DNA of 52,478 nucleotides from IMG/VR virus record IMGVR_UViG_3300025646_000058, positions 1 to 52,478 of that record; one strand, written 5' to 3'. A program made the position numbers and the translations under genes. The stretch's first letter is position 1; every line of letters begins with the position of its first letter. This DNA is from a virus (taxonomy: Duplodnaviria; Caudoviricetes). A model generated the notes under the pieces. It was not told where the DNA came from and ran no database searches. It saw only the letters and a list, made by a program, of their open reading frames with translations. Shown here in pieces: positions 908-50,878 of the stretch.

Positions 908-1159
908 TTATATCTTATTAATTGTGTAACATATTCCACTTGTCGCTAAAGATACACACACAATTTGTTGTATATCATAACTCAAAAACAAAGATAATAA
1001 AATCCCACAATATAAACCAATACATTGTGGACAACTTATCATTACCCCTAACTTAGCACTTTTTAAAGTTAGATACTCCCTAAATCCCTTTAAAATGTAA
1101 CTCTTTGTTATTATCATAGCTAATCCATAACTAGATAATATACTGATAAATATATTCAT
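908..1159 (-). CDS. Small membrane protein, DUF1360-like
   Basis: Hydrophobic helices with SCPQCIGLY, resembling the CPxCxG motif of DUF1360. Confidence 0.55.
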   Translation of the reverse strand: MNIFISILSSYGLAMIITKSYILKGFREYLTLKSAKLGVMISCPQCIGLYCGILLSLFLSYDIQQIVCVSLATSGICYTINKI

Positions 1160-4100
1160 TATCTTAAATTTCTTTCAGATGGTGCGTAGTTTAACCCTAC
1201 TTGATATACCACTTCTTTTAGTTTTGAGTTAGTAATTAACTTAACTAAGAAACTTCTATCCCTCATTGCATCACCATTGATTTTAGGAAACTCCTCATTT
1301 ACAGTATTTACATCCCTCCAAACTTGCGAATAGTAAATATGCTCCTTACCATCAAACACTAAGTTATCTATATCTTCCTCTAAGAAGTCGTAAACATCAT
1401 TAGTAGTTTCCTGCCCATTTCTAGTTTCTATAATTACATCAAATGGAGTAGTAGTATGTAATGCTATTGACTTAGCAATTTTATTTTTATCCCTTTCCGC
1501 ATTAAAAGGTATCCATAATTCTGATTGATTATTTATACCATAGAATGTTGAATGATTTTCGTTTTGGTCATGTAAAAATAAAGCACCCCTATTAAATGAA
1601 GCTAAAGTTAAACCTATTGAACATAAGTATTCAGGCGTATATGAATAATAAGTTGTCCAATGCTTTGTTGTTTCACTAAACGCTAAAGTAATTGGTTTAA
1701 TATTTATCTCTTGCTTTCTTTCGTATTTAGGTAGGATAGGACTTGTACTAATTGTGTAGACTCCTGTTTCAACATTTCGTTCAATAGTAGTTTCTGTTTC
1801 AAATCCAGAAACATTATTCAACGTTTCAGTTGTAAATAAAATATCCGTACTTTCAGGAACTAACATTGTTTCAACTGATACAGTACCGAAACTTATATTA
1901 CCCACTACTGGAGGTATAAATAATTCCCTAGTTAATTCACCAAAAGCAACTACTAATTCCTCATAAGCTGTATCAAATGAAGTAAAGATTGTAGGCACTA
2001 TTTCACTTGCTAAGTATTGCCCAAACTTATCCTCAAAAAACTCTTTCATTTTTATATCGGATAGTAAAGTAATACCATCATTACTTAACCTACATACCGC
2101 CCCACGTTTATAATCTACAAAGTATCTTTGATTACCATTGTAACAGAAACTTTCAGGGTTTAACGCTATTCCATATTCTCCTGTATAATACACAATTTTA
2201 GATAGTACCTTCTCACTAGCAGCAACAGTACCCTGTCCAAATTGGTCAAATATAACATTCTCCTCCACTAAGATACTTCCTACTTTTAATTCCTGGTAAC
2301 AATCTAATCTTTTATTAAATGAATGTAATCTTTGAATACTACCATAAACTCTATCGTATTGCTCAAAGTTAACATCAAAGAAACTATTTAAGCCATTGAT
2401 TGAAGTTTCAGGTATAAATCTATCACTATAATAAATCGTTGTAGGTCGTCTTAATTGTTTAATATCCATATTAACAATATTAGGTCGCCCTGCATCAGTT
2501 GTTATAAAACTTCTATCAACAAAATCATTAACATAATTAGACTCTACAAATTCACTTGAATAAGTAGTTTCTGTAATAGGCATATTCCTTTGGAATAAAT
2601 AAGTATCTCCCGAAGTGAATTTAACTATTGCAGGTTCAGTGTCTGTTTGGTCTTGTACGTTACCTTTGTGTAATCCATTTTCAATTAGATAAAACTCGCC
2701 TATCTCAAAAAACAAGTTATTCTCTACATCTTTTAATGGAGTATATATCTCAAATAAATCACCACCATTTGTACTCAATGAAGGTAAGTTAAATTCATTA
2801 CGTAAAGTTAAAACTCCTGTACCAATATCATAAGATAAAATCTCTAAATCAAAGCGTGTAGAAAATGGGAAACCTTCCGCACTCTTTATAAATCTTATTC
2901 TATCTCCCTTTGTAAATGTATATACTAATTCACTTCCTTTGTTTACTTCGTTATAAATGTTTACTATATTGTCTATGCTTATATTAATTGTGTAACCATC
3001 ATTACTTGATGTTACATCACCCGATAACGTTTTGTATTCAGTTGTTTTAGAAATGAATTGTATGTAGTTTGTAAAGTTTAATTTCTTAGTTCTTACCCAA
3101 GCATAATGTGTCGCCCATTCAGGTGCTTTATTATACAAGTATCCGCTTACTATTGGTACTGATGAAAATGCGTATTGTGTAGGGTCACCCAAAACACTTT
3201 GTAAACCTATCTTAACCTTATCAGTAAAGAATGGTAAATCTAAGCGTAAATCCTCAATAGTGTTTACTGCTCCACTTCTATTCGCTCTATCATAATAAAC
3301 TATACCAAACTCATAAGATGCACCACGTTTTAAAAAACTAGTACCTAAACCAAATGTAGTTACAGCTTCTATATTACCTAAATCTAATCCAATTTCTGAA
3401 TTATATATTTGTATAGCAGGATCATTGTTAATATCCAAATACATATCAACATTACCCACAATATTATCAGTAACGTTATATCGTATTTGACTATTATTTG
3501 TAAATCCATAAATTGTGCCTGTATATCTTGATTGATTTAAACTTTGTGCAAAGTTATTAAATGAATCAGCGTAAACTATAATATCAAAGTAACCGTTTGA
3601 ATCTGTAAATTGATTATCACCTCTTTCAGCTAAAACAATTAATCCTGGTACAGAACTACCATTATTATCTACTATCCTACCACTTACGTTTGATTTAACA
3701 CTATCTAAAGCAAATCTATTTTTAACTTGCGCTAATAATAATAAACCATCATTATCAGTTGAAGGTATGTTAGTAATAACAGATAAACTTTCTAAAGCTC
3801 CTTTATACATTATTAAAGGAGTTTGTAGTGAGCCTTGTTGTATCGTTAAGAATTGTGTAACATCCGTTTTAATAAAGAAAAATCCGTTATGATCCGTAAA
3901 AGTAAATTTGTTAGCGAAATATCTACTTTGCCCTGCTACATAATTTCTGTTAGCTGTATAAAAACCTTCTGGTATATCATTAGAACCTTTATAATTTATC
4001 CTACTGTAAGTAACCCTTTGTTGCCCCCTTACATCATTTGTAGTGTTATAAGTTTCAGCTTCGTTATCATGTAAATATCCAAATGAAATAGTGTTATCTA

Positions 4101-5892
4101 TGTTCAACTCTTTTCTTTGAGTAGCTAAATTAACCCTTATCTTAGGATATGTAATATCAGCAATTTCAGTTGTGCCAATTTCTTTTACCTCACCACCTTC
4201 TACTTTTACTTTACACTCACAACCATCAATACCACCTACACGCATTGTAAAGGTAGAAGTTCTTTCATACGGTCTTGTAATATCATCATACTCTTCCTTA
4301 GTTGTTAAATGGCTAGCTATCCTTAAAATATATTCCCCATCAGGAATACCTTTTAATTCAAATTCACTATAAACAGCTTGCTGCTCCATTAAGTCAACTA
4401 TCCTTTCAGTATTAACTCTGTTTACAAAAAATACATTTGTAGAACTCATTATATCTGGGGCAACCCTCCTTTGCTTACTTATAGTCTTATAGTTAGTTCC
4501 AACTAAATAAACTACAAATCCAGCTAAAGGAATAGGGTTGTAATATAGTCCATTATTCAGATATTCTTTTTCAGTATCACCATCAGTAGAGTTGTTTCTA
4601 GCTATTAAAGCATGAGCTGTACTTACACTACCGAAATAAGGCTTACCACTATTATCACCATTTAAGTATCTTATTGGTTGACATCTTTGAAACGTTATTG
4701 AGTCATAATACTTTTCACCAATAGCAGCTAAACTTAGGTTTGGTACACCTAATACTCCTGCTGGCATATTGTTTACGTTTCTTATATATATTCTACCCTT
4801 AATTGTGTTTAATTCTTCGTCAGGTAATTGTGCATCCTCAAAAGCTTCATATTGAACATCTAAATCAGCTTCTACTTCTACATTATCATAATCCTCTATA
4901 ATATCACCATACACAATTCTATTACCCTCAATTAACGCCTGCGTTCCAGCTAATAAAGGTAACTTATCAAACAATTTAAGACTATCCCTTACATCAACTA
5001 ATGAATAGTTACCATCGTTATAGAAGTTATATACAAAATCCCCATTACCACTTTGCTCAAAAAAACTAACTGGCTTATCTAAAATTGAAATAAAATCTTT
5101 ACTCTCACTATCTCTTGCTACTATCTCTACACGCTTAACTAATTTACCACCCGAAGGCACAATTACTTGTATAGCGTTATTAAACTGATTAGTAGTTTGT
5201 ATATATGAAGTGTTGCTTATAGTCTGTTTTGATATAGGACTAAATGCACTCTTCTCTCCATCATCATATATGTATCTTGCTTTAAACTGCCATAATTCAT
5301 TACGGAAGTAGTTGACATCAAATTGTGTATCCGTAAAATATTTACTTGTAGGCGGATATAATGGCGGATATTTAACTGCATCAATAATATCTAAGGTAAT
5401 AGGTAAATCATATTTATCTCCTGTTAAACCTGTATTAAATGCTCTTATTGATTTACCAATATTAAATTTTCTTGGTGGATTTAATCTATCCACAAAATAA
5501 ATTAATTGGTTATCATTATCTAAATCCAATACATTCACATGGGTAATCAAATGCTCCTTACTGAAATTCAATAAAGGCGAAATCATAACCATTATGCTTT
5601 GGTCTTGTAGCAAATTATATTGAACAATATGGTGGTCGCCATTACTGTTGTGGTTGAAATAATAAACAATATTATCCCTTTTGTATTCGTAAGCACCAAT
5701 AGTTGTATTCTCTCCTTCTGGTAATTCAATATACCTTATCTCATTACCCTTGCACAATTCAACTGCGTTCTTATTTTCTGAATCACTAGATCCAATTCTT
5801 ACATTTACAGCTTTTCGGCAATAGCCATTTTCCACATCTCTTTCGTCTGTGTCGGCATCCATACCATAAACTACTCGTCTATTCTCTACCAT
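1159..5892 (-). CDS. Tail stabilisation/nozzle protein (crAss-like, P22 gp10-like position)
   Basis: 1577 aa; GMDADTDER..AVNVRI start, YEFGIVYYDRANRS, YGIALNPESF and YFVDYKRGAVCRLSNDGITLLS motifs typical of this family. Confidence 0.75.
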   Translation of the reverse strand: MVENRRVVYGMDADTDERDVENGYCRKAVNVRIGSSDSENKNAVELCKGNEIRYIELPEGENTTIGAYEYKRDNIVYYFNHNSNGDHHIVQYNLLQDQSIMVMISPLLNFSKEHLITHVNVLDLDNDNQLIYFVDRLNPPRKFNIGKSIRAFNTGLTGDKYDLPITLDIIDAVKYPPLYPPTSKYFTDTQFDVNYFRNELWQFKARYIYDDGEKSAFSPISKQTISNTSYIQTTNQFNNAIQVIVPSGGKLVKRVEIVARDSESKDFISILDKPVSFFEQSGNGDFVYNFYNDGNYSLVDVRDSLKLFDKLPLLAGTQALIEGNRIVYGDIIEDYDNVEVEADLDVQYEAFEDAQLPDEELNTIKGRIYIRNVNNMPAGVLGVPNLSLAAIGEKYYDSITFQRCQPIRYLNGDNSGKPYFGSVSTAHALIARNNSTDGDTEKEYLNNGLYYNPIPLAGFVVYLVGTNYKTISKQRRVAPDIMSSTNVFFVNRVNTERIVDLMEQQAVYSEFELKGIPDGEYILRIASHLTTKEEYDDITRPYERTSTFTMRVGGIDGCECKVKVEGGEVKEIGTTEIADITYPKIRVNLATQRKELNIDNTISFGYLHDNEAETYNTTNDVRGQQRVTYSRINYKGSNDIPEGFYTANRNYVAGQSRYFANKFTFTDHNGFFFIKTDVTQFLTIQQGSLQTPLIMYKGALESLSVITNIPSTDNDGLLLLAQVKNRFALDSVKSNVSGRIVDNNGSSVPGLIVLAERGDNQFTDSNGYFDIIVYADSFNNFAQSLNQSRYTGTIYGFTNNSQIRYNVTDNIVGNVDMYLDINNDPAIQIYNSEIGLDLGNIEAVTTFGLGTSFLKRGASYEFGIVYYDRANRSGAVNTIEDLRLDLPFFTDKVKIGLQSVLGDPTQYAFSSVPIVSGYLYNKAPEWATHYAWVRTKKLNFTNYIQFISKTTEYKTLSGDVTSSNDGYTINISIDNIVNIYNEVNKGSELVYTFTKGDRIRFIKSAEGFPFSTRFDLEILSYDIGTGVLTLRNEFNLPSLSTNGGDLFEIYTPLKDVENNLFFEIGEFYLIENGLHKGNVQDQTDTEPAIVKFTSGDTYLFQRNMPITETTYSSEFVESNYVNDFVDRSFITTDAGRPNIVNMDIKQLRRPTTIYYSDRFIPETSINGLNSFFDVNFEQYDRVYGSIQRLHSFNKRLDCYQELKVGSILVEENVIFDQFGQGTVAASEKVLSKIVYYTGEYGIALNPESFCYNGNQRYFVDYKRGAVCRLSNDGITLLSDIKMKEFFEDKFGQYLASEIVPTIFTSFDTAYEELVVAFGELTRELFIPPVVGNISFGTVSVETMLVPESTDILFTTETLNNVSGFETETTIERNVETGVYTISTSPILPKYERKQEINIKPITLAFSETTKHWTTYYSYTPEYLCSIGLTLASFNRGALFLHDQNENHSTFYGINNQSELWIPFNAERDKNKIAKSIALHTTTPFDVIIETRNGQETTNDVYDFLEEDIDNLVFDGKEHIYYSQVWRDVNTVNEEFPKINGDAMRDRSFLVKLITNSKLKEVVYQVGLNYAPSERNLR

Positions 5893-5893
5893 A

Positions 5894-6646
5894 TTAGAAT
5901 TTTGGTGCTAATTTATTTCCTTTACGCATTGTTTGTAAAAACTCTTCCTTAGTGAAAGATTTAAACCTCGCAACACTTTTCTTTTTCTCAATGATGTAAT
6001 TTCTTCTAAACACTTCTTTTTGATTTAAAGCTACGTTTAAATTACTCTCCACCATCTTCCAGGTTATGTATGATTTAACTGTATCAATAATATATGGATG
6101 TACTGCAAATTGTCCATCAGTTCTACTTAAATCAGATAGGTACTCCATATAAATTGTGCTACCTCCTGAATATCCCTCTAATGCAATATATCCTAATTCC
6201 TCATTAATCTTGTAGTAGCCATTCATATTCTGCCCACCACCTAAACCAAACATACCTCCTGTAATCTCACCAAAATTAAAAAATGAATGGTCGTTATATT
6301 CCCAATAAATAACTTCACTAATTCCTGTATTACCTGCTGGAGATAAAATCTTACCACAACTATCTACCACCACATCTTTACCTCTTGTAAAGCTAGGGTA
6401 CAATGGTCTAATTTTACCACCTGTATCGTAAATACCTAACGTAATTAATGAAATATAATCTTTTGGTAAATCTACCGTATCATTTGAATTTACAGTTAAT
6501 AATTTTGCAACAGGCTGTCCACTTACATCTAAGTTTAAAGTTCTTAAACAACCCAACGCTAAAGATAAAGCTCTAGCGTATTTGTGTTCAGTATTACCCG
6601 ATTCAAATAACCACTCCCTTACTACACTATCTATTGTTGTATTCAT
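5894..6646 (-). CDS. Tail tubular/ring protein
   Basis: NDTVDLPKDYI and IYMEYLSD motifs; third of three ring-protein-like genes. Confidence 0.65.
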   Translation of the reverse strand: MNTTIDSVVREWLFESGNTEHKYARALSLALGCLRTLNLDVSGQPVAKLLTVNSNDTVDLPKDYISLITLGIYDTGGKIRPLYPSFTRGKDVVVDSCGKILSPAGNTGISEVIYWEYNDHSFFNFGEITGGMFGLGGGQNMNGYYKINEELGYIALEGYSGGSTIYMEYLSDLSRTDGQFAVHPYIIDTVKSYITWKMVESNLNVALNQKEVFRRNYIIEKKKSVARFKSFTKEEFLQTMRKGNKLAPKF

Positions 6647-6648
6647 AA

Positions 6649-7275
6649 TTATTTCACGTTATCAGTTAATACATCTTGTGGCGTTTGCCTCATTGTATAA
6701 TACATTTGAACTACTAATTTAATAATTTCTTCCTGCATATTCAAAGGTAAATCAATATTATCTTCTTGACTATCACTTTGTATTCCACCTACTAGCTTTA
6801 TTAATAGCTTTTCAGGTATAGCAGCAGTATCCAAATTGTGCAAGTATATCCTTGTATTTTCTATGTAATAACCTTTGTTACCCTCTAAGTTAGCTACTAA
6901 CGTTCCTCTAGTTAACGCTAAGAAATCTGTTCTTAATGGCACAAATGTATTAAACTCATCTTGTACTGGCGATACGCTATATAAACCCATACCATTAGGT
7001 AAGTTAACATAACTACTGCTTATCGGTGCGTAATGCTTACATCTTTGTTTATCATATTTTACATTCTCTACAAATGAATAAATAAACGTACCATTCACAT
7101 TGTTCTCACCATCAGCATTTCTATTCTCGTAATAAGATGCTACAATGTACTTACCAAAACATTGGTCAACATACGTTTCTAACTCCTCCTTTGTTACTTG
7201 AACATCAGAGTTTACATCGCCCCCTTGAATAATCCTTTGAGCTTGTTCCGCTATTAAAGTTCTTGTATCTCTCAT
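6649..7275 (-). CDS. Tail tubular/ring protein
   Basis: Size, synteny and C-terminal DLPLNMQEEIIKL resembling the paralogous neighbours. Confidence 0.6.
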   Translation of the reverse strand: MRDTRTLIAEQAQRIIQGGDVNSDVQVTKEELETYVDQCFGKYIVASYYENRNADGENNVNGTFIYSFVENVKYDKQRCKHYAPISSSYVNLPNGMGLYSVSPVQDEFNTFVPLRTDFLALTRGTLVANLEGNKGYYIENTRIYLHNLDTAAIPEKLLIKLVGGIQSDSQEDNIDLPLNMQEEIIKLVVQMYYTMRQTPQDVLTDNVK

Positions 7276-7985
7276 TATACGCCTTGTTGTTTAAGTGTTT
7301 CAGAATATTGTACCAATTCAGCTTCACGTAAATTCATACCTAAATATGAAGCACACATAAAAACTAATTCATTCATACAATCTTCTGGTAATTCTATATC
7401 TGTTGATTTATCAATAGAATAAACTGGTTTATTGTTTACCACATCAAATCCCCATACAGGCGTTTTAGGCTTTCTTAAATATACCAACTTAACTGTTGAT
7501 ATAGTTTTAGGAAATATCTCTATCTTATCACCTATAAATCTTGCTACCCCTAACTTACCATTCTTTATTCTTTTACCGAATAGTACAGATGATAATTGTG
7601 CAGCCAACTCCGAATCTCTTAATATGCTAAAGTTAATTAAATCACTCTTTAATTCACCCTCTTTATCTAAATCATTTCTTACGTATGAAATTGTAGATAA
7701 ATGTAAATAATCATTAGGTAATGTTATTATACCGTTATTTACCTTATACGCTTCATTTACTACAATCAAATATCGTAAGTCATCTGTAATCTTTTGGTTT
7801 TGCTCAAAGCCTACCATAGCTGAACCATCAGGCTTTTGCTGTTTAACATTGTGATAGCGTTTAGTTATCAACTCATAAACCGCCCTAGAGATACTCTTAT
7901 TGAAATCTTTAGGAGTTAAAAAACCACTCTGACTTTTATTCGATATGAATTGTAAAAACTCATATACGCTATTTACATTTATCAT
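7275..7985 (-). CDS. Tail tubular/ring (head-tail adaptor) protein
   Basis: INVNSVY..NKSQSGFLTPKDFN, LPNDYL and YLRKPKTPVWGF motifs of crAss-like/flavophage ring proteins. Confidence 0.75.
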   Translation of the reverse strand: MINVNSVYEFLQFISNKSQSGFLTPKDFNKSISRAVYELITKRYHNVKQQKPDGSAMVGFEQNQKITDDLRYLIVVNEAYKVNNGIITLPNDYLHLSTISYVRNDLDKEGELKSDLINFSILRDSELAAQLSSVLFGKRIKNGKLGVARFIGDKIEIFPKTISTVKLVYLRKPKTPVWGFDVVNNKPVYSIDKSTDIELPEDCMNELVFMCASYLGMNLREAELVQYSETLKQQGV

Positions 7986-7996
7986 ATCTTTAAGTA

Positions 7997-11970: not shown

Positions 11971-11992
11971 TTGTATATTTTTATAATTGGGT

Positions 11993-12000: not shown

Positions 12001-12001
12001 C

Positions 12002-42238: not shown

Positions 42239-42277
42239 AAATAAATAAATCAAGTAATAACTAAATCAAATCAAACA

Positions 42278-42934: not shown

Positions 42935-42941
42935 TTAATAC

Positions 42942-42957
42942 TGCCCCTTCGGGGGCA
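42942..42957 (+). terminator. cUUCGg hairpin (weak terminator or stabiliser)
   Basis: TGCCCC-TTCG-GGGGCA with only a short T tail. Confidence 0.6.
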
Positions 42958-42964
42958 TTATACT

Positions 42965-43915: not shown

Positions 43916-44118
43916 TGGATATAGCGTATATTTATACCAATGGTGAAGATACTAAAGTTTTTGGTTCGGAGCTTACACAATTAGACCACGACAACCTAAC
44001 CGAAAACGATTACCATTTAACTGCTTCTATACATACAGTTGAGCTAATTAGAAAATTGTGCAACGTTGAAAATAAAGAACGACACCAAATAATTGATAAA
44101 CTATTTAAGCATATATAG
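43915..44118 (+). CDS. Hypothetical protein
   Basis: Translationally coupled ORF. Confidence 0.6.
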   Translation: MDIAYIYTNGEDTKVFGSELTQLDHDNLTENDYHLTASIHTVELIRKLCNVENKERHQIIDKLFKHI

Positions 44119-44215
44119 ACTAAATCTATTAACGCTTTATTATTGATAGAAACAATCAATTAAAAACCTTGCACAATTTAAAATAGTAACCTTAATTTAG
44201 TAAAAAAAATAAACA

Positions 44216-45331
44216 ATGAAAGATTTTCCAAAAGAATTGGCGCACCTTACACAATATGCTAAATACTGCAAAAAACTAAAGGAAGGAGTATATGGCTTTT
44301 TTATTAATCAGTTTAATCCTGATGGCACAAAGAACATAGACTGGTATGAATTTAGAAAAAACACTTTAGGTGCTTCTGAAACTGCAACTGCTTGTGAAGG
44401 TGGTTATGATGAGTATGGAGTAAGAGCTAAATTGTTTTGGAGTAAAGTAGGTGCTAAATTTCCTGAAATAAAATCTAAATTTACCTTTTGGGGGTTAGAA
44501 TTAGAACGTAATGTTGCTAATGCTTGGAAGTATTATGATGGCTCGGAAGAAGGGTATATCGATAATAGATACAACGCAAATGTTATTCGTGAATTTCAAG
44601 ATTTAAACTGTTATGCTATTAATATTAAGTATCCTTATCTTTCTGCATCTTTTGACTTTCTTGTACCAGAAGGGCAAGTAAATCCATTTAGTGGTGAGGT
44701 TGTGAATTTTTCGTATCCTTTAGAGATTAAAACTATCTCTTTAGCTGCTGCTGAAAAGTACGAAACAGGATTGCCTGTTAGATACATATTCCAAACTCAC
44801 CAACAAATGATTATCTGGGAATGTGATTACTGTGAGATTGCTGCACTAAAAGGTGGTACTGATTTTCAAGTTTACCCTATTAAAATGGTTGATAGTGTAA
44901 AGGAAATGGTATTGAAAGAAACTAAGGAGTTTTGGGATTTAGTTGTTGAAGCTAGACCTATTTACAATGAGTTAGAAATAACTTTTGATAATGATAAAAA
45001 ACAACAATTAAGAGAGCAATTAGATAACTTAGAACCTGAACCTGAACAAAATAAAGGTTACGAGGATTTTTGGAAAGAAAAATATAAGGAAGGTAGTATT
45101 GCTAAAGAATTAGTTGGTACTGATGATGATTTCCAAATTGCTGTTGCTTATAAAGATATTCTTGAAGAAGAAAAGGAATTATCAACTAAAAAACAATTAA
45201 TTAAAAATCACTTGCTTTATATTATGAAAGATTATGAGGAACTTACTTTTGGTGATAAAGGTAGGGTAGTACATAGAAATAATCCAGGTAGTAGAGCTTA
45301 TTTTGGAGTTAACATTAAGAATTATAAGTAG
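44216..45331 (+). CDS. YqaJ/lambda-exonuclease-like recombinase
   Basis: W..FRKNTLGASE, WGLELE, YPYLSASFD, LEIKT, Y.FQ..QQM. Confidence 0.88.
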   Translation: MKDFPKELAHLTQYAKYCKKLKEGVYGFFINQFNPDGTKNIDWYEFRKNTLGASETATACEGGYDEYGVRAKLFWSKVGAKFPEIKSKFTFWGLELERNVANAWKYYDGSEEGYIDNRYNANVIREFQDLNCYAINIKYPYLSASFDFLVPEGQVNPFSGEVVNFSYPLEIKTISLAAAEKYETGLPVRYIFQTHQQMIIWECDYCEIAALKGGTDFQVYPIKMVDSVKEMVLKETKEFWDLVVEARPIYNELEITFDNDKKQQLREQLDNLEPEPEQNKGYEDFWKEKYKEGSIAKELVGTDDDFQIAVAYKDILEEEKELSTKKQLIKNHLLYIMKDYEELTFGDKGRVVHRNNPGSRAYFGVNIKNYK

Positions 45332-45597
45332 TGAGATTTAAAATAGGCGACAAGGTAAGGATAGTTAATTACGGATCTAAATTAAAAATCCGTAAAGATG
45401 AATACAAAGATTTATCAATAACATTTCCTATCATTAAAGAAGAAGGTGATTTTTACATTACAGATATGAGTAGAGAAAAAATAGGTAAGGAAACTATTAT
45501 AACAAAAGTATCTGATGGGCAATACGCTACTGAATTAGTTTCATGGCTTAATGATAACCAATTAGAATTAGTAAACGATACACAATTAGATATATGA
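45331..45597 (+). CDS. Hypothetical protein (KOW/SH3-like)
   Basis: FKIGDKVRI start; GTG start coupled to the upstream stop. Confidence 0.6.
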   Translation: MRFKIGDKVRIVNYGSKLKIRKDEYKDLSITFPIIKEEGDFYITDMSREKIGKETIITKVSDGQYATELVSWLNDNQLELVNDTQLDI

Positions 45598-45860
45598 AAA
45601 TAACAATGCCAGACAACAAGGAGTATGATGTAAACATATACTTTACTGTTAGAATGAATGGTTACGGTAGTTGGAAGATAACTGCAAATTGTGGTGATAA
45701 CGAAAAGACTATTACAACCAACAAAATGTACCTTATAGAAGGTATATACACTACTAATAAACCTAAAGATGAATACATATATGATTCATTTAAAAGTGAA
45801 TTTGAAGGGTGGCTTTGGTTTATATTAGATAAAAACTCAATAGGTAATTTTAAAAACTAA
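45594..45860 (+). CDS. Hypothetical protein
   Basis: Operonic ORF. Confidence 0.6.
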   Translation: MKITMPDNKEYDVNIYFTVRMNGYGSWKITANCGDNEKTITTNKMYLIEGIYTTNKPKDEYIYDSFKSEFEGWLWFILDKNSIGNFKN

Positions 45861-45863
45861 AAA

Positions 45864-46568
45864 ATGGACAAAGATTTTAATCAAAAATACAAAAAAGTTA
45901 AACAACGTATTGTTGAACTAAAAGAACAAAAATTATGGGATGATGTTAATATCAACACCGAAATAGTTAAGATTGATAAAAAACTAGATAGCGTTAATAA
46001 AGAAAAGCTATACGCTATTGTTAAAGCTACGGTTGAAATTGGTGGTAAATCATTTACTGCACACGCAATGGAAACAGAAGGAGTTGGTGATATTAACTAC
46101 CTACACTTTATCGAAAATGCTGAAACTTCTGCTGTGGGTAGAGCTTTATCATTTGCAGGTATCAAAGATGAAGAAACTACTGATATTGCCTCTAAAGAAG
46201 AAATAGAAACTGCAAAAGAGCAATTAAAGGATGTGAACATTGAAAAGCGTAAAGAAGTTGCACAAAACTTAATTGAGCAAACTTTACAAAAGAAACAATT
46301 AGGTATTACTGATGTAGTAAAACCTAAACAAGTTAAGTTTGATGAAAGTAACATACCAGTATTTGCTGAATTAGGAAATAATAGTATCAGACCTAAAGCA
46401 GAGAGAGAAAAGATTATTACGTGGCTTAAATCTGTAAAGAAGTTTGATGAGAATGTACTTATAGGTGCTTTGATTGCTTCGGAAATGAGTATTAAGTTTA
46501 AATCATTTAATGAATTAATCAATAAAGGATCATACCAAGATATTTTAAACACTTTTAAACATTTATAA
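45864..46568 (+). CDS. Rad52/Sak-like single-strand annealing protein
   Basis: TAHAME..IN..IENAETSAVGRALSFAGI; near the YqaJ exonuclease. Confidence 0.7.
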   Translation: MDKDFNQKYKKVKQRIVELKEQKLWDDVNINTEIVKIDKKLDSVNKEKLYAIVKATVEIGGKSFTAHAMETEGVGDINYLHFIENAETSAVGRALSFAGIKDEETTDIASKEEIETAKEQLKDVNIEKRKEVAQNLIEQTLQKKQLGITDVVKPKQVKFDESNIPVFAELGNNSIRPKAEREKIITWLKSVKKFDENVLIGALIASEMSIKFKSFNELINKGSYQDILNTFKHL

Positions 46569-46909
46569 TGGAAAAGGAAGAATTTGTTTCTATAATGAAC
46601 AGTATTGAAAAGCATTATAGACAATACCAAAACAAAACCAATGTATTATCTACACAATTAGGTGGTAATATAGATTTTATCGGTGGTGAATTTGTTGATA
46701 TTGTAGTTAGAACATTACAGCAAGTATTTCCTCCTTACATTGATAAAGATGGTAAAGTACACTGCACAATTGAATACTATATGTACGATTTAGATTTTGG
46801 TAAACGTACAGACTTATCTATTACACATATAGATAATGGAGTTGAAAATAAAATATTATTAACTGATGCAGGTAAGCTGTATGATTACTTAACTACTTAT
46901 GGAGTATAA
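46568..46909 (+). CDS. Hypothetical protein
   Basis: IEYYMYDLDFG..LYDYL. Confidence 0.65.
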   Translation: MEKEEFVSIMNSIEKHYRQYQNKTNVLSTQLGGNIDFIGGEFVDIVVRTLQQVFPPYIDKDGKVHCTIEYYMYDLDFGKRTDLSITHIDNGVENKILLTDAGKLYDYLTTYGV

Positions 46910-47726
46910 ATATAAATCAAAGGAAGAGGAGTTTTTTGCGTTGTGGTTAGATGAATTGTGCAAGCATGGGTTTATTGTTGAATATGTTTATGAGCCTAAA
47001 CCAATATTGTTATCGGATAAAGTAGAAAGAATCGTTAATGTAAAAGGTAAGTTAGCTACACAATTTGTGTTGCACCCTCACGAATATACATACGATTTTG
47101 AAATACTTTGGGATACTAAAGCAATAGGTATATTCGCTACACAATTTGAAGCAAAACAAAAATCCCAAACACCATTATATTGTGATAAAGAATATGTAAG
47201 CTACATAGAGATTAAACCTGAATTTGATTTTAAAAATATGACTAGAGAAGTTATGATTAATCTAAAATGGGTTTACGAGAAACATAAAATCTTTGTGAAT
47301 TTAGTTAAGATACCTAGTTTTTTTAAAAAATCTTTTACTCCATATAAATTTTTACAGAATAAAAACGGAACAATGAAGAAGATTAAGTACACGCCTATTT
47401 TGAAGTTTGCACAATTCTTATCGAATGCACTAGCAAAAACCAATAGAGAAATAGAAGTATCCGTAGAAGGATGTATTGCTAACGTAAAACTAATTGATAA
47501 ACATTCGCATTTAGTTTTTCCTGGTGAAATTGAATTAGAAGTTGAATTTACTTATGAAATTGATGAGTATGAAACAGGTGATGGAGTTACTACACCTAGA
47601 GAGAAATGGATGGATGTTACAGTTAAAATTGAGGAGGTTACACACTTAGGAATGGAAATAACCTTAGAAAGCAAAACCTTACACTCAATAGAGGAATTAA
47701 TAATTGAAGAGATAAAAAATAAATAG
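46899..47726 (+). CDS. PD-(D/E)XK endonuclease (endonuclease I/DUF1064-like N-terminus)
   Basis: YKSKEE, YEPK, YTYDF, YIEIK. Confidence 0.7.
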   Translation: MEYKYKSKEEEFFALWLDELCKHGFIVEYVYEPKPILLSDKVERIVNVKGKLATQFVLHPHEYTYDFEILWDTKAIGIFATQFEAKQKSQTPLYCDKEYVSYIEIKPEFDFKNMTREVMINLKWVYEKHKIFVNLVKIPSFFKKSFTPYKFLQNKNGTMKKIKYTPILKFAQFLSNALAKTNREIEVSVEGCIANVKLIDKHSHLVFPGEIELEVEFTYEIDEYETGDGVTTPREKWMDVTVKIEEVTHLGMEITLESKTLHSIEELIIEEIKNK

Positions 47727-47728
47727 TC

Positions 47729-47974
47729 ATGATAATAGAAAGAAAAGACATCGAAACAGTTAGCGTTACTCTTCCAGAGTATTTATTAATTAAACAAGAA
47801 AAGATACGTAGTTTACCTTGTGATATACGCAAGAAATATATCCAAATTGTGTGTGCAGGTAAACATAACCTATCCGAAGCTATGATTTGTAAGCGTTTAG
47901 TTTCAAGCGAGAAGGTTACACACTTTAAAAAAGCTATAACCTTAAACTACATTATCAAATGGGAAAAGAATTAG
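47729..47974 (+). CDS. Hypothetical protein
   Basis: Operonic ORF. Confidence 0.55.
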   Translation: MIIERKDIETVSVTLPEYLLIKQEKIRSLPCDIRKKYIQIVCAGKHNLSEAMICKRLVSSEKVTHFKKAITLNYIIKWEKN

Positions 47975-48237
47975 ATATGTTTATTGAGATATGGAAAGAA
48001 AGACCTCACTATTCAGAAGTATCAGGTGAGCCACTAGGTAGCTTTAATGTTGCTTATTTTTCACATTTACTATCTAAAGGTGCTTTTCCTGAACATAGAT
48101 TAAATAAAGATAATATAATGCTTAAAACAATTGAAGAGCATATGCTTTGGGAAACAAGTGATAGAGAAAAGTTAAGGAAGATACCTAAATGGGAAAAGGT
48201 ATTTGAGCGTTATGATAAACTAAAATTTAACGGATAA
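47959..48237 (+). CDS. Degenerate HNH/NinG-like nuclease
   Basis: SEVSGEPL..FSHLLSK..RLNKDNI....EEH. Confidence 0.65.
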   Translation: MGKELDMFIEIWKERPHYSEVSGEPLGSFNVAYFSHLLSKGAFPEHRLNKDNIMLKTIEEHMLWETSDREKLRKIPKWEKVFERYDKLKFNG

Positions 48238-48735
48238 ACCTACTGTTGGGGTTCTATTATAAATATTAAATCCTACTTCCGCCTGGTATCTATCCCATAA
48301 ATAAGAAGCTTTTGGGGTGATGTTTTGGTATCCAAATTGTGTACCGATGTAAATTCCTCTTGGTTGTATTACATTAGTTATTTTAACCGTATCAACTCTG
48401 TGGTATGAAGGAATATTCGCTGTGTATTTTATATCTGTATTTAGTAATGTACCATTCACAATTTGTTTAATTTCCATATCAATTAACGTATCCTTATATT
48501 CAGTTAAATATTCGTTAGCTTGCACAATTAGGATACTGTCGATTATCGTATCCCTAACCACTCTAACAATTGTTGCAGGAATACTAGGTGCATAAACTGT
48601 TTTAGTTACATATACAGTATCAGTTTTACCTTGTATGTATTCAGTCTTAGTTTCAGTTACTTTTACTCCACATTTTTTAAAAGTAATTAAAAATAAAACT
48701 ACCATTAAACCTATAATTATAATATTATTTCTCAT
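48220..48735 (-). CDS. Membrane-anchored protein, spanin-like position in the lysis cassette
   Basis: N-terminal TM ending KKC, DTV repeats, beta-rich C-terminus ending in F; start at 48735 overlaps the PAS stop. Confidence 0.55.
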   Translation of the reverse strand: MRNNIIIIGLMVVLFLITFKKCGVKVTETKTEYIQGKTDTVYVTKTVYAPSIPATIVRVVRDTIIDSILIVQANEYLTEYKDTLIDMEIKQIVNGTLLNTDIKYTANIPSYHRVDTVKITNVIQPRGIYIGTQFGYQNITPKASYLWDRYQAEVGFNIYNRTPTVGLSVKF

Positions 48736-49127
48736 ATATTTCTGCATGTGCAAACTAAGTAATTATTCGGCAACAAAGTTAAATAAACTTCTTCTTTTAC
48801 TTCATCACCATTTTTTGCGTAACCAATATATTTTCCGTTCCATTTGCCATTAGCAAATATAATAGGAAAAACTATCGTTTTAAAATATTCAACATCATTA
48901 GGCTTGTATAATATCTCCCATTTTTTACCTGTCAATTCTTCAACCGTATAACCAAACATTTCTGCATGAGCTTCATTGAGATAAATATACTCGCCATTTT
49001 CGTTAAGGATAGCAATACCCTCGTGGCTAGTATTAATTGCCAACCTTAGCAACTCATTTTGCTTAAATAATAAGCTTATTTTGTCGCTTAAAGACTTGAT
49101 TTCTTCAATATTACTCAAAGATTTCAT
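48732..49127 (-). CDS. Stand-alone PAS-domain protein
   Basis: EGIAILNENGEYIYLNEAHAEMFGYTVEELTGK..W.G..KNG..RNI PAS/PAC signature. Confidence 0.9.
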   Translation of the reverse strand: MKSLSNIEEIKSLSDKISLLFKQNELLRLAINTSHEGIAILNENGEYIYLNEAHAEMFGYTVEELTGKKWEILYKPNDVEYFKTIVFPIIFANGKWNGKYIGYAKNGDEVKEEVYLTLLPNNYLVCTCRNI

Positions 49128-49128
49128 A

Positions 49129-49455
49129 CTAAATTTGTTTTAAAATCCACGAAATTATAAAACCTACGACTAATTCAATAGCAATTAATAACCCTATTGC
49201 TTTAGACCATTTGTTTTTTTGATCGTAAACCTCATCTTTAACTTCTTTCATTTGTCTAGGTGACCATGTTTCGGTTACCTCTTTTTGCCAAACTTTTATA
49301 TCCTGAATTTCTTTTTCGGTAGTGTGAACCTTAGCAATGTCACGGCGTAAATTCTCAAATTTTAAATCAATATCCGCCTTTAGCTTGTCGATTGCATTTC
49401 TATTACGCTCTAACTCGTTTAATATTAATTTTGTGAAGTCGTCTATTTCTTTCAT
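49129..49455 (-). CDS. Coiled-coil protein with C-terminal TM (holin/antiholin-like)
   Basis: Heptad-rich body and one hydrophobic helix; lysis cassette. Confidence 0.55.
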   Translation of the reverse strand: MKEIDDFTKLILNELERNRNAIDKLKADIDLKFENLRRDIAKVHTTEKEIQDIKVWQKEVTETWSPRQMKEVKDEVYDQKNKWSKAIGLLIAIELVVGFIISWILKQI

Positions 49456-49518
49456 TATTATATATAGATATATATTAAAGTTTACAAAAATAAAAAATTA
49501 GTTAATATTTACACTACT

Positions 49519-49758
49519 TTAATCTTTATTTAATTTTATATTTTCTGCAATTGTGCCACCTGCTAATAAACTTGCACCAGTTACTATACTAAATTCAATT
49601 ATTGAAATAGTAGTACTGCTTTCAACACCATCAAATTGAACTTTAATTATATAGTATGAACTAATTAATAATGCCCATAATACTAATACTACTCCAACAA
49701 ATCTTTTACTAGATACGTTAGAGTTTTTATCAAAGATACCTTTTATCCAATTAATCAT
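49519..49758 (-). CDS. Holin-like protein (2 TM)
   Basis: SSKRF followed by two TM helices; adjacent to the endolysin. Confidence 0.65.
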   Translation of the reverse strand: MINWIKGIFDKNSNVSSKRFVGVVLVLWALLISSYYIIKVQFDGVESSTTISIIEFSIVTGASLLAGGTIAENIKLNKD

Positions 49759-49768
49759 AACTATTTAG

Positions 49769-50248
49769 TTAAAATATATAATTGCCAATTTCTTCCTTTA
49801 CGAATTTCTTTACATCAAAGTTAGGACAAGTTTTACCTTTGTCTAAATCTGTGTGCCCAAAAAACTGTTCTTGACTTAATATTTTTCTATCAATTAATTC
49901 TACTATCAAATACGCTAAAGTTTTTTTCTGTTCATCAGTTCTTTCATCTTTACCTTTAAATCCACCAATTAAACAAATGCCTAAGTTACCAGTATTAAAT
50001 CCTCTTACGTGCGCTCCTGTTTTATTTATATCTCTACCTATTTGTATGTTTCCATTAGGTAAAACAACTAAATGATAACCAATTTCTTTAAACCCTCTTT
50101 GTTTATGCCACAATTCAATTTGTTCTGCTTTATCTCCCCTATTAACAGGGCTATCACTTACATGAATTGTGCAACGTGTTAACTTTTGTGTTATAGTAGG
50201 AAAGTTTTTTAAAAACTCTTCTAATGTAAAAATATCAAACTTTTTCAT
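49769..50248 (-). CDS. Endolysin, N-acetylmuramoyl-L-alanine amidase (T7 lysozyme-like)
   Basis: IHVS, WHKQRGF.EIGYH, GAHVRGFN, GICLIGG, GH..KTCPNF; probable start MKKFD at 50248. Confidence 0.92.
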   Translation of the reverse strand: MKKFDIFTLEEFLKNFPTITQKLTRCTIHVSDSPVNRGDKAEQIELWHKQRGFKEIGYHLVVLPNGNIQIGRDINKTGAHVRGFNTGNLGICLIGGFKGKDERTDEQKKTLAYLIVELIDRKILSQEQFFGHTDLDKGKTCPNFDVKKFVKEEIGNYIF

Positions 50249-50249
50249 A

Positions 50250-50738
50250 CTAATAAACCAAATTAAATTCTGTAAATAATCTAGCACTAACTTCATTGTA
50301 TAAATCAATTATCCATTGAGGTTTTTCTTGCCTTTTTCCTTTTATATAATCTCTAAAATTAAAAAATGGTCTAGCCATTCTTACTACTTGAAATTGCGTT
50401 AATGCCCAGGCTTCACTATTACCGCTACACAATTCGATATATAAAAATATAACATCATTCTCATAACAACCAAACCCCATACGTGAAGGATAATCGTGAA
50501 AGAATACAGATAAGTTACCTGCATATCTATCTTTGATAAATGTCTTACCATCAAACCCTCTAGTTTCCCAATACCTACTTCTAAATATCATTTCAAGATT
50601 ATTCCTAAATGATATACCTAAGTTAAAATCCTCTGCTTGTTTTAAGTAGTTTTTCCAAACTGATTTTTCACTAAAGAATCTAAATTCATATCCAAATAGT
50701 TGATTCTTATAAGGTGATGTGTAAGGTTTATATTCCAT
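50250..50738 (-). CDS. DUF1353-like protein
   Basis: FDG.T..FFHDY..D.IF..VVR pattern. Confidence 0.5.
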   Translation of the reverse strand: MEYKPYTSPYKNQLFGYEFRFFSEKSVWKNYLKQAEDFNLGISFRNNLEMIFRSRYWETRGFDGKTFIKDRYAGNLSVFFHDYPSRMGFGCYENDVIFLYIELCSGNSEAWALTQFQVVRMARPFFNFRDYIKGKRQEKPQWIIDLYNEVSARLFTEFNLVY

Positions 50739-50740
50739 AG

Positions 50741-50878
50741 TTATTCAATTATATAAGGATAGTGAGGATGTTTTTTATAGTCTATTTTTTTATTAATTGT
50801 GCAACTATTAAATAGGTACATAAATATACCCATTAATACTATAAATGCAACTCTTTCAAAATTAGATTTGGGTTTCAT
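50741..50878 (-). CDS. 45-aa putative lipoprotein (MKPKSNFERVAFIVLMGIFMYLFNSCTINKK...)
   Basis: Fills the gap exactly with 2-nt spacers; lipobox-like FNSC; not in the ORF track. Confidence 0.6.
   Translation of the reverse strand: MKPKSNFERVAFIVLMGIFMYLFNSCTINKKIDYKKHPHYPYIIE

Follow-up and report, generated by a model that had tools for sequence, protein, structure and literature searches.

What reads the nonamer AATTGTGYA, and why its orientation should change along a genome, are the questions raised by IMG/VR record IMGVR_UViG_3300025646_000058, a phage. The window analysed here is the entire record (G000), a single contig of 52,478 bp, in which the word occurs in 83 exact copies, 44 on the forward and 39 on the reverse strand, or about one per 630 bp; the T form is present 53 times and the C form 30 times. 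A previous, sequence-only reading of this DNA had described the saturation and put the count at about 82 (43 forward and 39 reverse). The saturation stands, as do all the copy positions that it listed, while the exact figure is higher by one forward copy that had been missed. The roughly two copies that it expected by chance agree with the 2.43 obtained in 100 dinucleotide-preserving shuffles (standard deviation 1.71, maximum 8). In an unbiased 9-mer scan of the window AATTGTGYA is the top enriched word, with an enrichment z of about 22.

The word is sharply delimited. The 26 other single-base variants of its T form, AATTGTGTA, are present in 0–5 copies each, which is the background level. The flanks are more loosely defined: position −2 is C in 38 of the 83 copies, −1 is A or T in 63, +10 is C or G in 65 and +11 is C in 44, bearing out the C/G preference that had been noticed after the word. 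The same flank bias recurs in the relatives described below, where it extends out to +14 (A or T at +12 in about 90%, C at +14 in about 53%). The site is asymmetric, consisting of an invariant 9-bp core and weaker flanks, with a total length of about 17 bp; the reverse complement of the core reads TRCACAATT. Even spacing was not found (coefficient of variation 1.12, versus 0.98 for random placement), nor was any origin-like cluster of copies beyond chance in the window.

Most of the copies (72 of 83) lie within open reading frames (ORFs), 47 antisense and 25 sense, in three phases on each strand; the other 11 fall between ORFs or at the edge of one. The copies encode unrelated peptides (YTI, xTQF/L, xHNx, NCV/A, xLCx and xIVx), which confirms the variety of frames, orientations, gaps and peptides (YTI, TQF/TQL, NCV, LCK, IVQ and HN) seen by eye. 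Codons were shuffled synonymously (n=200) so as to preserve every protein and the codon pool of each gene; the mean count was then 25.4 (standard deviation 3.4, maximum 34), compared with 83 observed. This mean includes the approximately 11 non-coding and edge copies, which the shuffle does not touch, so that about 14 coding copies are attributable to protein and codon make-up where 72 are observed. The enrichment thus persists against the synonymous background that the sequence-only reading had named as a check.

Its second check, conservation in relatives, gave a similar outcome. Relatives were collected with a profile of the large terminase (TerL) at graded distances, and three of them (G001–G003) are complete IMG/VR genomes of 63–70 kb with a TerL 77–78% identical to that of the window; they contain 94, 96 and 101 copies. 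At the orthologous place in these three, 23/48, 23/48 and 26/49 window copies are letter-identical (48–53%), compared with 10–11% of all other 9-nt windows in the same genes, at an overall DNA identity of about 71%. In codon-aligned orthologues, codons for unchanged amino acids are kept identical in 89–91% of cases inside the word and in 60–61% outside it, and 29/48, 27/49 and 29/49 of the window copies are still a motif. Since six frames are used, the codon shuffle falls short of the observed number, and both orthologous copies and synonymous codons are kept, the word is held by purifying selection at the level of the DNA and not of the protein, as had been claimed. Near-identical contigs show motif-letter mismatches of 0/198 and 0/45, versus 0.9% and 3.8% outside the motif, numbers that are too small for significance. 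The idea that newly acquired genes are without the word was rejected: ORFs that lack an orthologue in the relatives carry 1.34 copies per kb and core ORFs 1.62 (P 0.41).

The orientation of the copies switches with the gene-expression block (Table 1, blocks A–E), a feature that was absent from the earlier account. In the two divergent operons near the middle of the genome (blocks B and C, here called the central block) the sense copies number 17/21, 14/15, 12/12 and 11/12 in the window, G001, G002 and G003, respectively; outside the central block the corresponding numbers are 15/62, 16/79, 19/84 and 23/89. With block limits set by gene homology, the difference between the central block and the rest gives Fisher p values of 1e-5 to 1e-7 in each of the four genomes, which share orthologous sites, so that the tests are not independent. 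The bias is not a coding artefact, since the non-coding copies follow the orientation of their block and the coding copies of the central block are sense by 10:3, although seven of these ten cost a Cys codon. In the central block 8/21 copies lie within 10 nt of a stop codon, and 8/21 are non-coding or at an ORF edge. Copies in the majority orientation are kept in 73/113 site-by-genome comparisons and those in the minority orientation in 12/33, both above the 10% background. The central block is putatively early, judging from its layout: the operons diverge, they consist of many small ORFs, and the first gene of the rightward one encodes a weak Cro/C1-like helix-turn-helix (HTH).

An orientation code of this kind points to a directional process, that is, to a machine moving along the DNA. 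A passive coat, segregation and packaging had also been offered as functions; the blockwise orientation argues for a directional process rather than for any of these.

Does the word belong to the phage or to its host? In G001–G003 the word read backwards is present in 0–1 copies per genome. A near-identical fragment of 24 kb (G004) contains 33 copies of the word, and short metagenome contigs with a TerL 77–99% identical contain 4–8 copies in 2.7–4.9 kb. In a relative at 67% (L124) there are 5 copies in 19.5 kb, and alignment shows no better conservation of motif letters than of other letters (mismatches 32/81 versus 3229/10003); L124 carries nine copies of AAWTGTGYA, mostly upstream of TerL. 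TerL relatives at 55% identity or less have 0–2 copies per locus. The word recurs across independent assemblies, comprising four IMG/VR records, three metagenome contigs and 20 runs from 14 studies. At least 118 IMG/VR loci match a two-copy pattern, and none of the matches listed shows dispersed saturation; their counts are 2–5, with the exception of L098, whose 10 copies form a tandem array.

In the 401 Bacteroidia genomes sampled, no saturated genome was found, the maximum being about 230 copies, at best one per 14 kb. These genomes were drawn evenly from the class of a Flavobacteriia metagenome-assembled genome, and the true host perhaps lies outside the sample; two of them (G103 and G189) are unpublished and have ordinary counts, and the claim stands without them. 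In most of the 401 genomes the word is about twice as frequent as its backward-read control, and the actual host may show a modest, Chi-like enrichment. A host word saturating its genome in the manner of Chi or of a DNA uptake sequence (DUS) was rejected on this sample, which likewise gives no support to the Chi and uptake-sequence precedents that had been cited. Of the two groups in which the earlier reading had proposed to look for the motif, related phages carry it (94–101 copies), and none of the sampled Bacteroidia genomes is saturated with it (0/401). Taken together, the data support the conclusion that the word belongs to the phage lineage and not to the host.

A sister clade, with a TerL 51–55% identical, is without the word. 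Its most enriched words are TGCACATTTA and parts of it, and AAATGTGCA, the reverse complement of TGCACATTTA, is one letter from the word of the window. The sister-clade variant, AAATGTGYA, is present in 5–14 copies per whole record. In one record (G007) 11 of the 14 copies are sense to a leftward, putatively early operon of small genes and seven lie within 5 nt of a stop codon; in another (G005) six of nine are sense to putative early genes and three lie within 5 nt of a stop codon. Some copies in this clade fall within a 16-bp palindrome or at TAA-ATG stop-start junctions. The placement is that of a regulatory site at operon junctions. Because the sister clade has a few copies of a one-letter variant at such junctions, the likely history, as read from these comparisons, is a junction site of the central operons (about 10 copies), followed by a one-letter change and by genome-wide spread in one clade.

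The reader of the word is very probably a factor encoded by the phage. The sequence-only reading had named the proteins encoded at 38374 and 25588 as candidates. The first has gained from the analysis, being a DnaA domain IV (DnaA-IV) HTH protein in a genome whose motif has a TnCACA core; the second has a sub-threshold Cro/C1 match only, together with a match to phrog_4583 (E 0.006). Orthologues of the first in G001 and G003 match PF08299 (Bac_DnaA_C) with 52.3 and 47.6 bits (cut-off 31.5), and a profile of six clade sequences matches domain IV of DnaA from Thermotoga maritima (E 0.0016). The AlphaFold model of the 38374–38757 protein has a pLDDT of 91.9, and its ten best PDB fold matches in Foldseek are all DnaA. 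The DNA-bound domain IV structures 3pvp and 1j1v superpose with TM scores of 0.79–0.80 and an rmsd of 1.7 Å, with Foldseek E values of only 0.013–0.18. The protein, then, has the DnaA-IV fold. The proteins of the relatives have 93 residues and comprise domain IV alone; a basic loop, R..VRAR, and a helix, H-S-S-I/V-I-H, are invariant in the six clade sequences.

According to the review PMC5742627, the DnaA box is the 9-mer TTATnCACA, which is recognized in the major groove by the recognition helix (TnCACA) and in the minor groove by Arg399 (TTA). TRCACAATT starts with TnCACA, as do the sister-clade word (TGCACA...) and the word of L124; by our own arithmetic, TnCACA is found on either strand of a random 9-mer with a probability of about 0.008. 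Immediately 5′ of TRCACA, the three bases complementary to +9 to +11 are G/C-rich. That the DnaA-IV protein is the reader has, in our estimate, a little less than an even chance.

Small DnaA-IV proteins are numerous: matches to the DnaA-IV profile in metagenomes amount to 6,690 representatives at E ≤0.001, probably including full DnaA proteins, and no assigned role for the small proteins was found in the literature. Two of the 6,690 (P0125 and P0187) are tandem arrays of domain IV, one of 1680 aa with 9 matched stretches and one of 1052 aa with 6.

A partner of the DnaA-IV protein may be the clade-specific 133-aa protein of the replication module (43212–43613), which has weak leads to replication-initiation families. 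In a fold-complex test the pair scores 0.46, compared with 0.01 for the best of three controls; agreement between runs is at least 91% of contacts, and the partner has a pLDDT of at least 83. The mark used is reached by 58/80 solved complexes and by 2/110 mismatched pairs, and scores of 0.60 or less comprise only 7/80 of the former and both of the latter. The model thus lends weak support to a contact, a call that would be wrong more often than right unless the contact was likely beforehand.

We prefer, tentatively, the explanation that the sites are phage-specific, DnaA-box-like words acting as orientation-dependent (polar) barriers to transcription or other traffic, which we regard as possible though doubtful. 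The word would be an asymmetric, lineage-specific recognition site on double-stranded DNA, kept in about 100 copies per genome, and the sites would represent a diverged DnaA box, built on the TnCACA core and read by the 38374–38757 protein. Since the site is asymmetric, as a monomeric reader would be, a bound site could let a machine that travels along the DNA pass from one side only. In the central operons, where the sites face one way relative to transcription, preferentially at gene ends, the bound protein would stop RNA polymerase; this would shut the central operons off, following the stoperator logic of mycobacteriophages. In the genes for replication, structure and lysis, where the sites face the other way, sense transcription and co-directional replication would pass, and traffic running in the wrong direction would be stopped. 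A polar barrier would explain the block borders with one rule, leaving the majority of the copies with a secondary role only.

Several observations weigh against this explanation. About three-quarters of the copies are in the orientation that would be permissive and are covered only by secondary ideas, namely antisense or head-on blocking and titration. The all-or-none sharpness of the word is unusual for the site of a transcription factor and more typical of recognition by an enzyme or on a single strand. A simple scan found a sense-strand terminator at the corresponding block boundary in none of the three relatives. As to the proposed reader, the DnaA-IV protein of the window is only 35–37% identical to those of relatives with exactly the same word; the word lacks the 5′ TTA part of the DnaA box and extends 3′ of CACA instead; and in the sister clade the DnaA_C match is sub-threshold and lies inside a 301-aa ORF. 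Comparable saturation was found in none of 63 loci of other phages that encode a small DnaA-IV protein (best z 11.8, versus about 22 here), so the protein alone does not predict saturation; these loci are the ones of at least 9 kb among 80 found with a seven-sequence DnaA-IV subfamily, 17 shorter ones having been dropped. Finally, the position of the DnaA-IV gene in the replication module and the weak fold-complex contact favour the rival explanation considered next.

According to this explanation the copies are replication signals that serve the Prim-Pol–DnaB-like helicase as template recognition or loading sites; the helicase would read them on single-stranded DNA by itself or with the DnaA-IV protein as its adaptor. 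It is the main rival, though unlikely in our estimate. TRCACAATT would lie on the lagging-strand template of forks running with middle and late transcription, providing a start for priming, restart or helicase loading every 0.5–1.2 kb or so. Correctly oriented copies do occur once per 0.5–1.2 kb, which is the scale of bacterial Okazaki fragments, and the word is all-or-none and strand-polar in long blocks. The Prim-Pol domain is above its Pfam cut-off and is fused to the DnaB-like helicase, and no separate DNA polymerase was found among the ORFs scanned; the location of the DnaA-IV gene and the fold-complex result fit as well. There is also a precedent, in that de novo synthesis by the Prim-Pol of phage NrS-1 requires an 8-nt template sequence, present in two copies at the genome centre (relevant part of PMC7102993). 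However, this would require either head-on forks in the central block or two origins at its borders. As noted above, no cluster marks an origin and the spacing is no more even than random, and the GC skew tracks transcription, with no additional switch at the block borders. The minority copies are about 15 times above chance and are kept in 36% of comparisons, versus the 10% background. The sister clade, moreover, has a homologue of the Prim-Pol-helicase (33–35% identical) but only its 5–14 variant sites, mostly at stop codons of the central operon, a placement that does not suit priming.

It is improbable that the word is a Chi- or KOPS-like signal (KOPS, FtsK orienting polar sequence) for a host translocase or nuclease, such as AddAB/RecBCD, an FtsK-like pump or a helicase-nuclease defence system, which the phage would have amassed to tame the host enzyme in a direction-dependent manner. 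The word is sharp and non-palindromic and about 75% co-oriented along two long arcs that meet at a convergent point at about 48.2 kb, resembling the skew of Chi and KOPS along bacterial replichores, and the roughly twofold excess over the backward control in most sampled Bacteroidia genomes would fit too. Set against this, none of the 401 genomes, which may lack the true host, exceeds about 230 copies (one per 14 kb), and nine invariant bases plus flanks are longer than the known Chi and KOPS words. The one-letter variant at operon junctions of the sister clade suggests a reader on the side of the phage, and the inverted central block is not predicted.

Recognition by the small serine recombinase of the phage, or by another nicking or recombination enzyme, is very improbable. 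The sites would then be nicking half-sites, as in the interrupted genomes of some phages, or hotspots for cassette exchange between co-infecting relatives. The recombinase is catalytically plausible, with a YIRVST motif kept in the clade; an asymmetric site of some 17 bp is as long as a recombinase half-site; central-block copies lie at gene junctions; and a gene that is swapped for 27 letters in two runs (30726–31268) lies between the copies at 30669 and 31267. The replacement junctions, however, are 5–9 nt beyond these copies and do not represent a simple repeat-to-repeat deletion, most copies are within conserved genes and not at cassette borders, and the non-saturated sister clade also encodes the recombinase (39–42% identical).

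Slimmer still are the chances of an RNA signal, in which AAUUGUGYA in the central-operon transcripts would be recognized by a processing nuclease or a translational repressor, as with RegB and RegA of phage T4. Within the central block the sense strand carries the word, often between a stop and the next start, 3–48 nt upstream of an ATG, with the same placement in the sister clade; but 62/83 copies lie outside the central block and 47 of these 62 are antisense, where an RNA role predicts avoidance, and the proteins scanned include none resembling RegA or RegB. An enrichment without function, arising from the use of amino acids or codons, from a recurrent protein motif or small mobile repeat, or from assembly, can be practically dismissed, since the shuffle that preserves the proteins does yield some 14 coding copies but not 72, the copies occupy all six frames as well as non-coding DNA, no repeat extends into the flanks and the word recurs in independent assemblies.

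The positions of all copies are collected in Table 1 together with the other features of the window.

Table 1. Copies of AATTGTGYA in the window, with their relation to ORFs and the peptides they encode, followed by orientation blocks, candidate readers and other features.
Feature	Position	Strand	Relation to ORF or content	Encoded peptide or evidence
copy	920..928	+	antisense, ORF 908-1159	YTI
copy	1750..1758	+	antisense, ORF 1159-5892	YTI
copy	2189..2197	-	sense, ORF 1159-5892	KIVY
copy	2986..2994	+	antisense	YTI
copy	3851..3859	+	antisense	VTQF
copy	4826..4834	+	antisense	DAQL
copy	4910..4918	-	sense	RIVY
copy	5321..5329	+	antisense	DTQF
copy	5751..5759	-	sense	ELCK
copy	6834..6842	+	antisense, ORF 6649-7275	LHNL
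copy	7594..7602	+	antisense, ORF 7275-7985	AAQL
copy	8826..8834	+	antisense, ORF 7997-10144	ATQL
copy	9521..9529	+	antisense	YTI
copy	10484..10492	+	antisense, ORF 10144-11970	VAQL
copy	11389..11397	+	antisense	YTI
copy	11435..11443	+	antisense	VTQL
copy	11657..11665	+	antisense	VTQF
copy	15174..15182	+	antisense, ORF 14696-15919	DAQF
copy	15543..15551	+	antisense	VAQL
copy	17967..17975	+	antisense, portal gene	LTQF
copy	18533..18541	-	sense, TerL	KLCK
copy	18886..18894	+	antisense, TerL	DAQF
copy	19024..19032	-	sense, TerL	QIVQ
copy	20413..20421	+	antisense, TerL start	VAQL
copy	21795..21803	+	intergenic	
copy	22983..22991	-	sense, ORF 22956-23105	NCA
copy	23092..23100	+	antisense	ATQL
copy	23396..23404	-	sense, ORF 23177-23599	NCA
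copy	23713..23721	-	sense, overlapping stop of ORF 23712-24383	
copy	23981..23989	-	sense	KLCK
copy	24147..24155	-	sense	NCV
copy	24529..24537	-	sense, ORF 24390-25079	RIVY
copy	24707..24715	+	antisense	LHNL
copy	25912..25920	+	sense, ORF 25588-26004	NCV; NC[VA] in 3/3 relatives
copy	25973..25981	-	antisense	LHNS
copy	26578..26586	+	overlapping stop of ORF 26361-26579	
copy	27595..27603	+	intergenic, 4 nt past stop	
copy	27685..27693	+	intergenic, 22 nt upstream of ATG 27716	
copy	29082..29090	+	intergenic, abuts stop of ORF 28494-29081	
copy	29754..29762	+	sense, ORF 29394-30683	NCV
copy	30669..30677	+	sense, final codons of ORF 29394-30683	NCV
copy	31267..31275	+	overlapping stop of ORF 30726-31268; 4 nt ahead of next ATG	
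copy	32149..32157	+	intergenic	
copy	32178..32186	-	intergenic	
copy	32270..32278	+	sense, ORF 32204-32386	NCV
copy	32390..32398	+	intergenic, immediately ahead of terminator-like hairpin	
copy	34545..34553	+	sense, ORF 34305-34568	NCV
copy	34645..34653	-	antisense, ORF 34576-34893	CTI
copy	34814..34822	-	antisense	VHNL
copy	35067..35075	-	antisense, ORF 34930-35418	STQF
copy	38605..38613	-	antisense, within DnaA-IV gene	YTI
copy	38853..38861	-	antisense, ORF 38748-39044	YTI
copy	38914..38922	-	antisense	VHNF
copy	39487..39495	-	antisense, ORF 39317-39517	LAQL
copy	39530..39538	+	sense, recombinase gene	AIVY
copy	39621..39629	-	antisense	YTI
copy	39801..39809	+	sense	NCA
copy	40099..40107	-	antisense	VHNL
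copy	40205..40213	-	antisense, Prim-Pol-helicase gene	YTI
copy	40479..40487	+	sense	KLCI
copy	40724..40732	-	antisense	YTI
copy	40946..40954	-	antisense	YTI
copy	41436..41444	-	antisense	LHNW
copy	41761..41769	-	antisense	ATQF
copy	42814..42822	+	sense, ORF 42278-42934	KIVQ
copy	43156..43164	-	antisense, ORF 42965-43231	HTQL
copy	43690..43698	-	antisense, ORF 43613-43915	RTQF
copy	43835..43843	+	sense	NCV
copy	43974..43982	-	antisense, ORF 43915-44118	LTQL
copy	44054..44062	+	sense	KLCN
copy	44170..44178	-	intergenic	
copy	45579..45587	-	intergenic	
copy	46651..46659	-	antisense, ORF 46568-46909	STQL
copy	46763..46771	-	antisense	CTI
copy	46954..46962	+	sense, ORF 46899-47726	ELCK
copy	47057..47065	-	antisense	ATQF
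copy	47138..47146	-	antisense	ATQF
copy	47408..47416	-	antisense	FAQF
copy	48335..48343	+	antisense, ORF 48220-48747	GTQF
copy	48521..48529	-	sense	LIVQ
copy	50165..50173	+	antisense, amidase gene 49769-50296	CTI
copy	50426..50434	-	sense, ORF 50399-50551	NCV
copy	50795..50803	+	antisense, ORF 50741-50878	CTI
inverted pair of copies	32149 / 32178	+ / -	intergenic	
block A	1..22899		structural and packaging genes on -	20/25 copies on + (antisense)
block B	22900..24650		leftward operon beside divergent gap, putatively early	6/7 copies on - (sense)
block C	24651..32450		rightward, putatively early operon, ending at hairpin and T run	12/14 copies on + (sense)
block D	32451..48200		replication and recombination genes on +	24/32 copies on - (antisense)
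block E	48201..52478		lysis and small genes on -	3 copies on +, 2 on -
divergent gap between blocks B and C	25080..25587		no copy	core kept in relatives
13-pair hairpin, then T run	32408..32439	+	10 nt past copy 32390	taken as end of rightward central operon
stand-alone DnaA domain IV HTH, candidate reader	38374..38757	+	127 aa	PF08299 42.4 bits, cut-off 31.5
first gene of rightward central operon, alternative reader	25588..26004	+	weak Cro/C1 HTH	PF13443 19.1 bits, cut-off 22
small serine recombinase	39519..40169	+	resolvase/invertase type	PF00239 103.8 bits; phrog_95/125
Prim-Pol fused to DnaB-like helicase	40169..42238	+		PF09250 27.1 bits, cut-off 22.8; weak DnaB_C; phrog_19930
clade-specific replication-module protein	43212..43613	+	133 aa	71-77% identical in relatives
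large terminase TerL	18360-20426	-		
portal	15989-18319	-		
structural protein	1159-5892	-	1577 aa, crAss-type muzzle domain	PF25731, 97 bits
amidase	49769-50296	-		
DNA methyltransferases (three)	21987-22808, 24390-25079, 36992-37750			

The genes of the phage run leftward from about 25.1 to 0.1 kb, rightward from 25.6 to 48.2 kb and leftward again from 48.2 to 52.5 kb; a YqaJ-type exonuclease is encoded in addition to the Prim-Pol-helicase and the recombinase, and no sign of lysogeny was found in the window. The closest named phages by TerL, at only about 32% identity, infect Flavobacterium, Cellulophaga and Maribacter. The only match in a megablast search for close phage records was the methyltransferase gene 21987–22808, with 86.6% DNA identity to Flavobacterium phage mymlan6, which suggests a recent transfer and gives a clue to the host, probably one of the freshwater Flavobacteriia. 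Twenty public runs from 14 studies, mostly of freshwater, contain at least half of the words sampled from a 10-kb stretch. The phage is ecologically widespread and uncultured, being present in freshwater, marine and aquaculture metagenomes of these 14 studies.

A number of side observations concern the control regions. The core of the divergent gap (25302–25444) is 72–77% identical in G001–G003, G+C-richer than its surroundings and without the 9-mer, and might represent a common control region, an origin or a small RNA. In G001 and G002 a short hairpin, GTGCAAG..CCTGCAC, with a T-rich tail is kept on the antisense strand just beyond the end of the central operon (L283, 964–979; L279, 5727–5742, − strand). 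Four small genes in a row each have a 54-nt direct repeat (26324–26377, 26634–26687, 26847–26900 and 27111–27164; 67–100% alike) ahead of the start codon; this repeat, a separate element from the 9-mer, is likely a shared promoter or leader of the rightward central operon. The word itself was rejected as an early promoter, these small genes at 26.3–27.2 kb having the 54-nt repeat upstream instead; a scan for sigma-70-type promoters was uninformative in this AT-rich DNA (106 found, 103 expected). Another word, GCGTATA, is present in 27 copies where about 6 are expected (for example at 7276, 20454, 22912/22940, 24383, 26022 and 32554). It is enriched in the window and a near-identical contig only, G001–G003 holding 10–13 copies; several copies take the form GCGTATATG at start codons, and two build a 35-nt inverted repeat (22912–22946) at the end of the leftward central operon.

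Others concern gene content. Both phrog_67 methyltransferase genes are without any copy of the 9-mer, which is not significant. The muzzle domain (PF25731) is an element of tail architecture that this small freshwater podophage has in common with crAss-like phages. Among the differences listed between contigs from metagenome runs and the window, gene 30726–31268 is swapped for 27 letters in two runs of different studies (window 30686–31280), four runs have an insertion of 251 letters at 34575, the methyltransferase segment 36973–37993 is missing from three runs and gene 29122–29373 from one (window 29124–29391). Six TerL relatives (P0056, P0065, P0067, P0081, P0092 and P0095) have about 1020–1075 residues and contain homing-endonuclease or intein-type Pfam domains; the terminase of this phage group is thus a recurrent intein host. 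Private words are present elsewhere, too. The nearest named TerL relative (L002; MW202828.1, 1–50000) has its own over-represented 16-bp palindrome, GTGTCGTTAACGACAC, in about 11 places, L333 has ATACCAAC 12 times (0.5 expected) and L206 has CCACACCA 10 times. Words restricted to one lineage may be frequent among aquatic Bacteroidota phages.

To return to the polar-barrier explanation, its boldest form would be a 'direction code' of the virus, in which an orphan DnaA-IV protein reads about 100 words whose orientation tells machines which way to pass. This we consider rather unlikely. The travellers would be RNA polymerase, the replisome and perhaps host nucleases, and the code would be set one way in the early operons and the other way elsewhere, having grown within the clade from a few junction sites of the early operons. 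If this were true, a phage would provide a new class of system for polar insulation or traffic across a whole genome, and the DNA-binding fold of DnaA would have been put to a new use. The word matters in a wider sense because genome-saturating words, among them Chi, KOPS, uptake sequences and stoperators, have in each case led to a machine with a directional way of reading DNA; in the present phage selection is strong enough to fix synonymous positions and to impose Cys codons, and the strand switches with the gene-expression block. If the link to the DnaA-IV protein holds, the small DnaA-IV proteins that are so common in metagenomes gain a function, synthetic biology gains a compact, orientation-dependent DNA-protein module, and a regulatory site would be seen to have spread from about 10 to about 100 copies within one clade.

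How does the system compare with known ones? No description of the word or of such a system was found in the main texts of the literature matches listed, and literature on primase-site over-representation, on stoperators and on Bac_DnaA_C in phages yielded nothing on the present system; papers that contain the nine letters are mostly primer lists, and none of those listed deals with a motif of a phage. Stoperators are the sites of the repressor gp71 in L5 and other cluster A mycobacteriophages and are thought to block elongating RNA polymerase. Like the present sites, they are short, asymmetric and distributed in many copies over a phage genome of about 50 kb, with an orientation tied to transcription. 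The copies of the central block and the junction copies of the sister clade resemble them most, the barrier role being a proposal here. In contrast to stoperators, the present sites are about three times more numerous, 72/83 are inside genes and not intergenic, they change orientation with respect to transcription from the central operons to the remainder of the genome, and the candidate reader has a DnaA-IV fold and is not an immunity repressor. Stoperators are mentioned in passing in part of PMC11447400, the relevant section of which describes intergenic 21-nt direct repeats in the T1-like phage TLS, assigning them no function there. These repeats resemble the word in being phage-specific, direct and oriented with transcription; they differ in being intergenic, about 76 nt upstream of start codons, in 18–21 copies and with a degenerate middle (same section of PMC11447400).

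DnaA boxes share with the word the length of 9 bp, the asymmetry and the TnCACA part, and the phage encodes a protein of the domain IV fold. In the phage word, however, TnCACA is at the 5′ end and not the 3′ end, ATT follows CACA and TTA is absent; the phage protein is without domains I–III, so that no AAA+ filament could form; and about 100 copies are dispersed over 52 kb without an origin-like cluster. Phage primase sites, such as the trinucleotide of T7 gp4 and the 8-nt sequence of NrS-1, are likewise exact and strand-specific, and a Prim-Pol-helicase is encoded here. The NrS-1 Prim-Pol demands eight specified bases, according to the relevant part of PMC7102993, which are found in two copies at a central origin, versus about 100 dispersed copies in the present case.

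Chi and KOPS are also over-represented, non-palindromic words, co-oriented at about 75% along the arms. They are, however, host words read by host machines, whereas the present word is not enriched to saturation in the 401 sampled genomes, is longer and has a density some 7–20 times higher. The uptake sequences of Neisseria (DUS) and of the Pasteurellaceae (uptake signal sequence, USS) are exact 9–10-mers with about one copy per kb, tolerated in all reading frames, and are similar to the word in this saturation by an exact sequence. Unlike it, they are a trait of bacterial genomes that is tied to competence; the present word is restricted to a phage clade and oriented in blocks, and it is not an uptake sequence. 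Overall, stoperators come closest to the way the system works and DnaA boxes to the look of its sites, although it lacks defining features of each. A polar, over-represented recognition word is a known kind of element, and there is a real chance that the system described here is a new kind.

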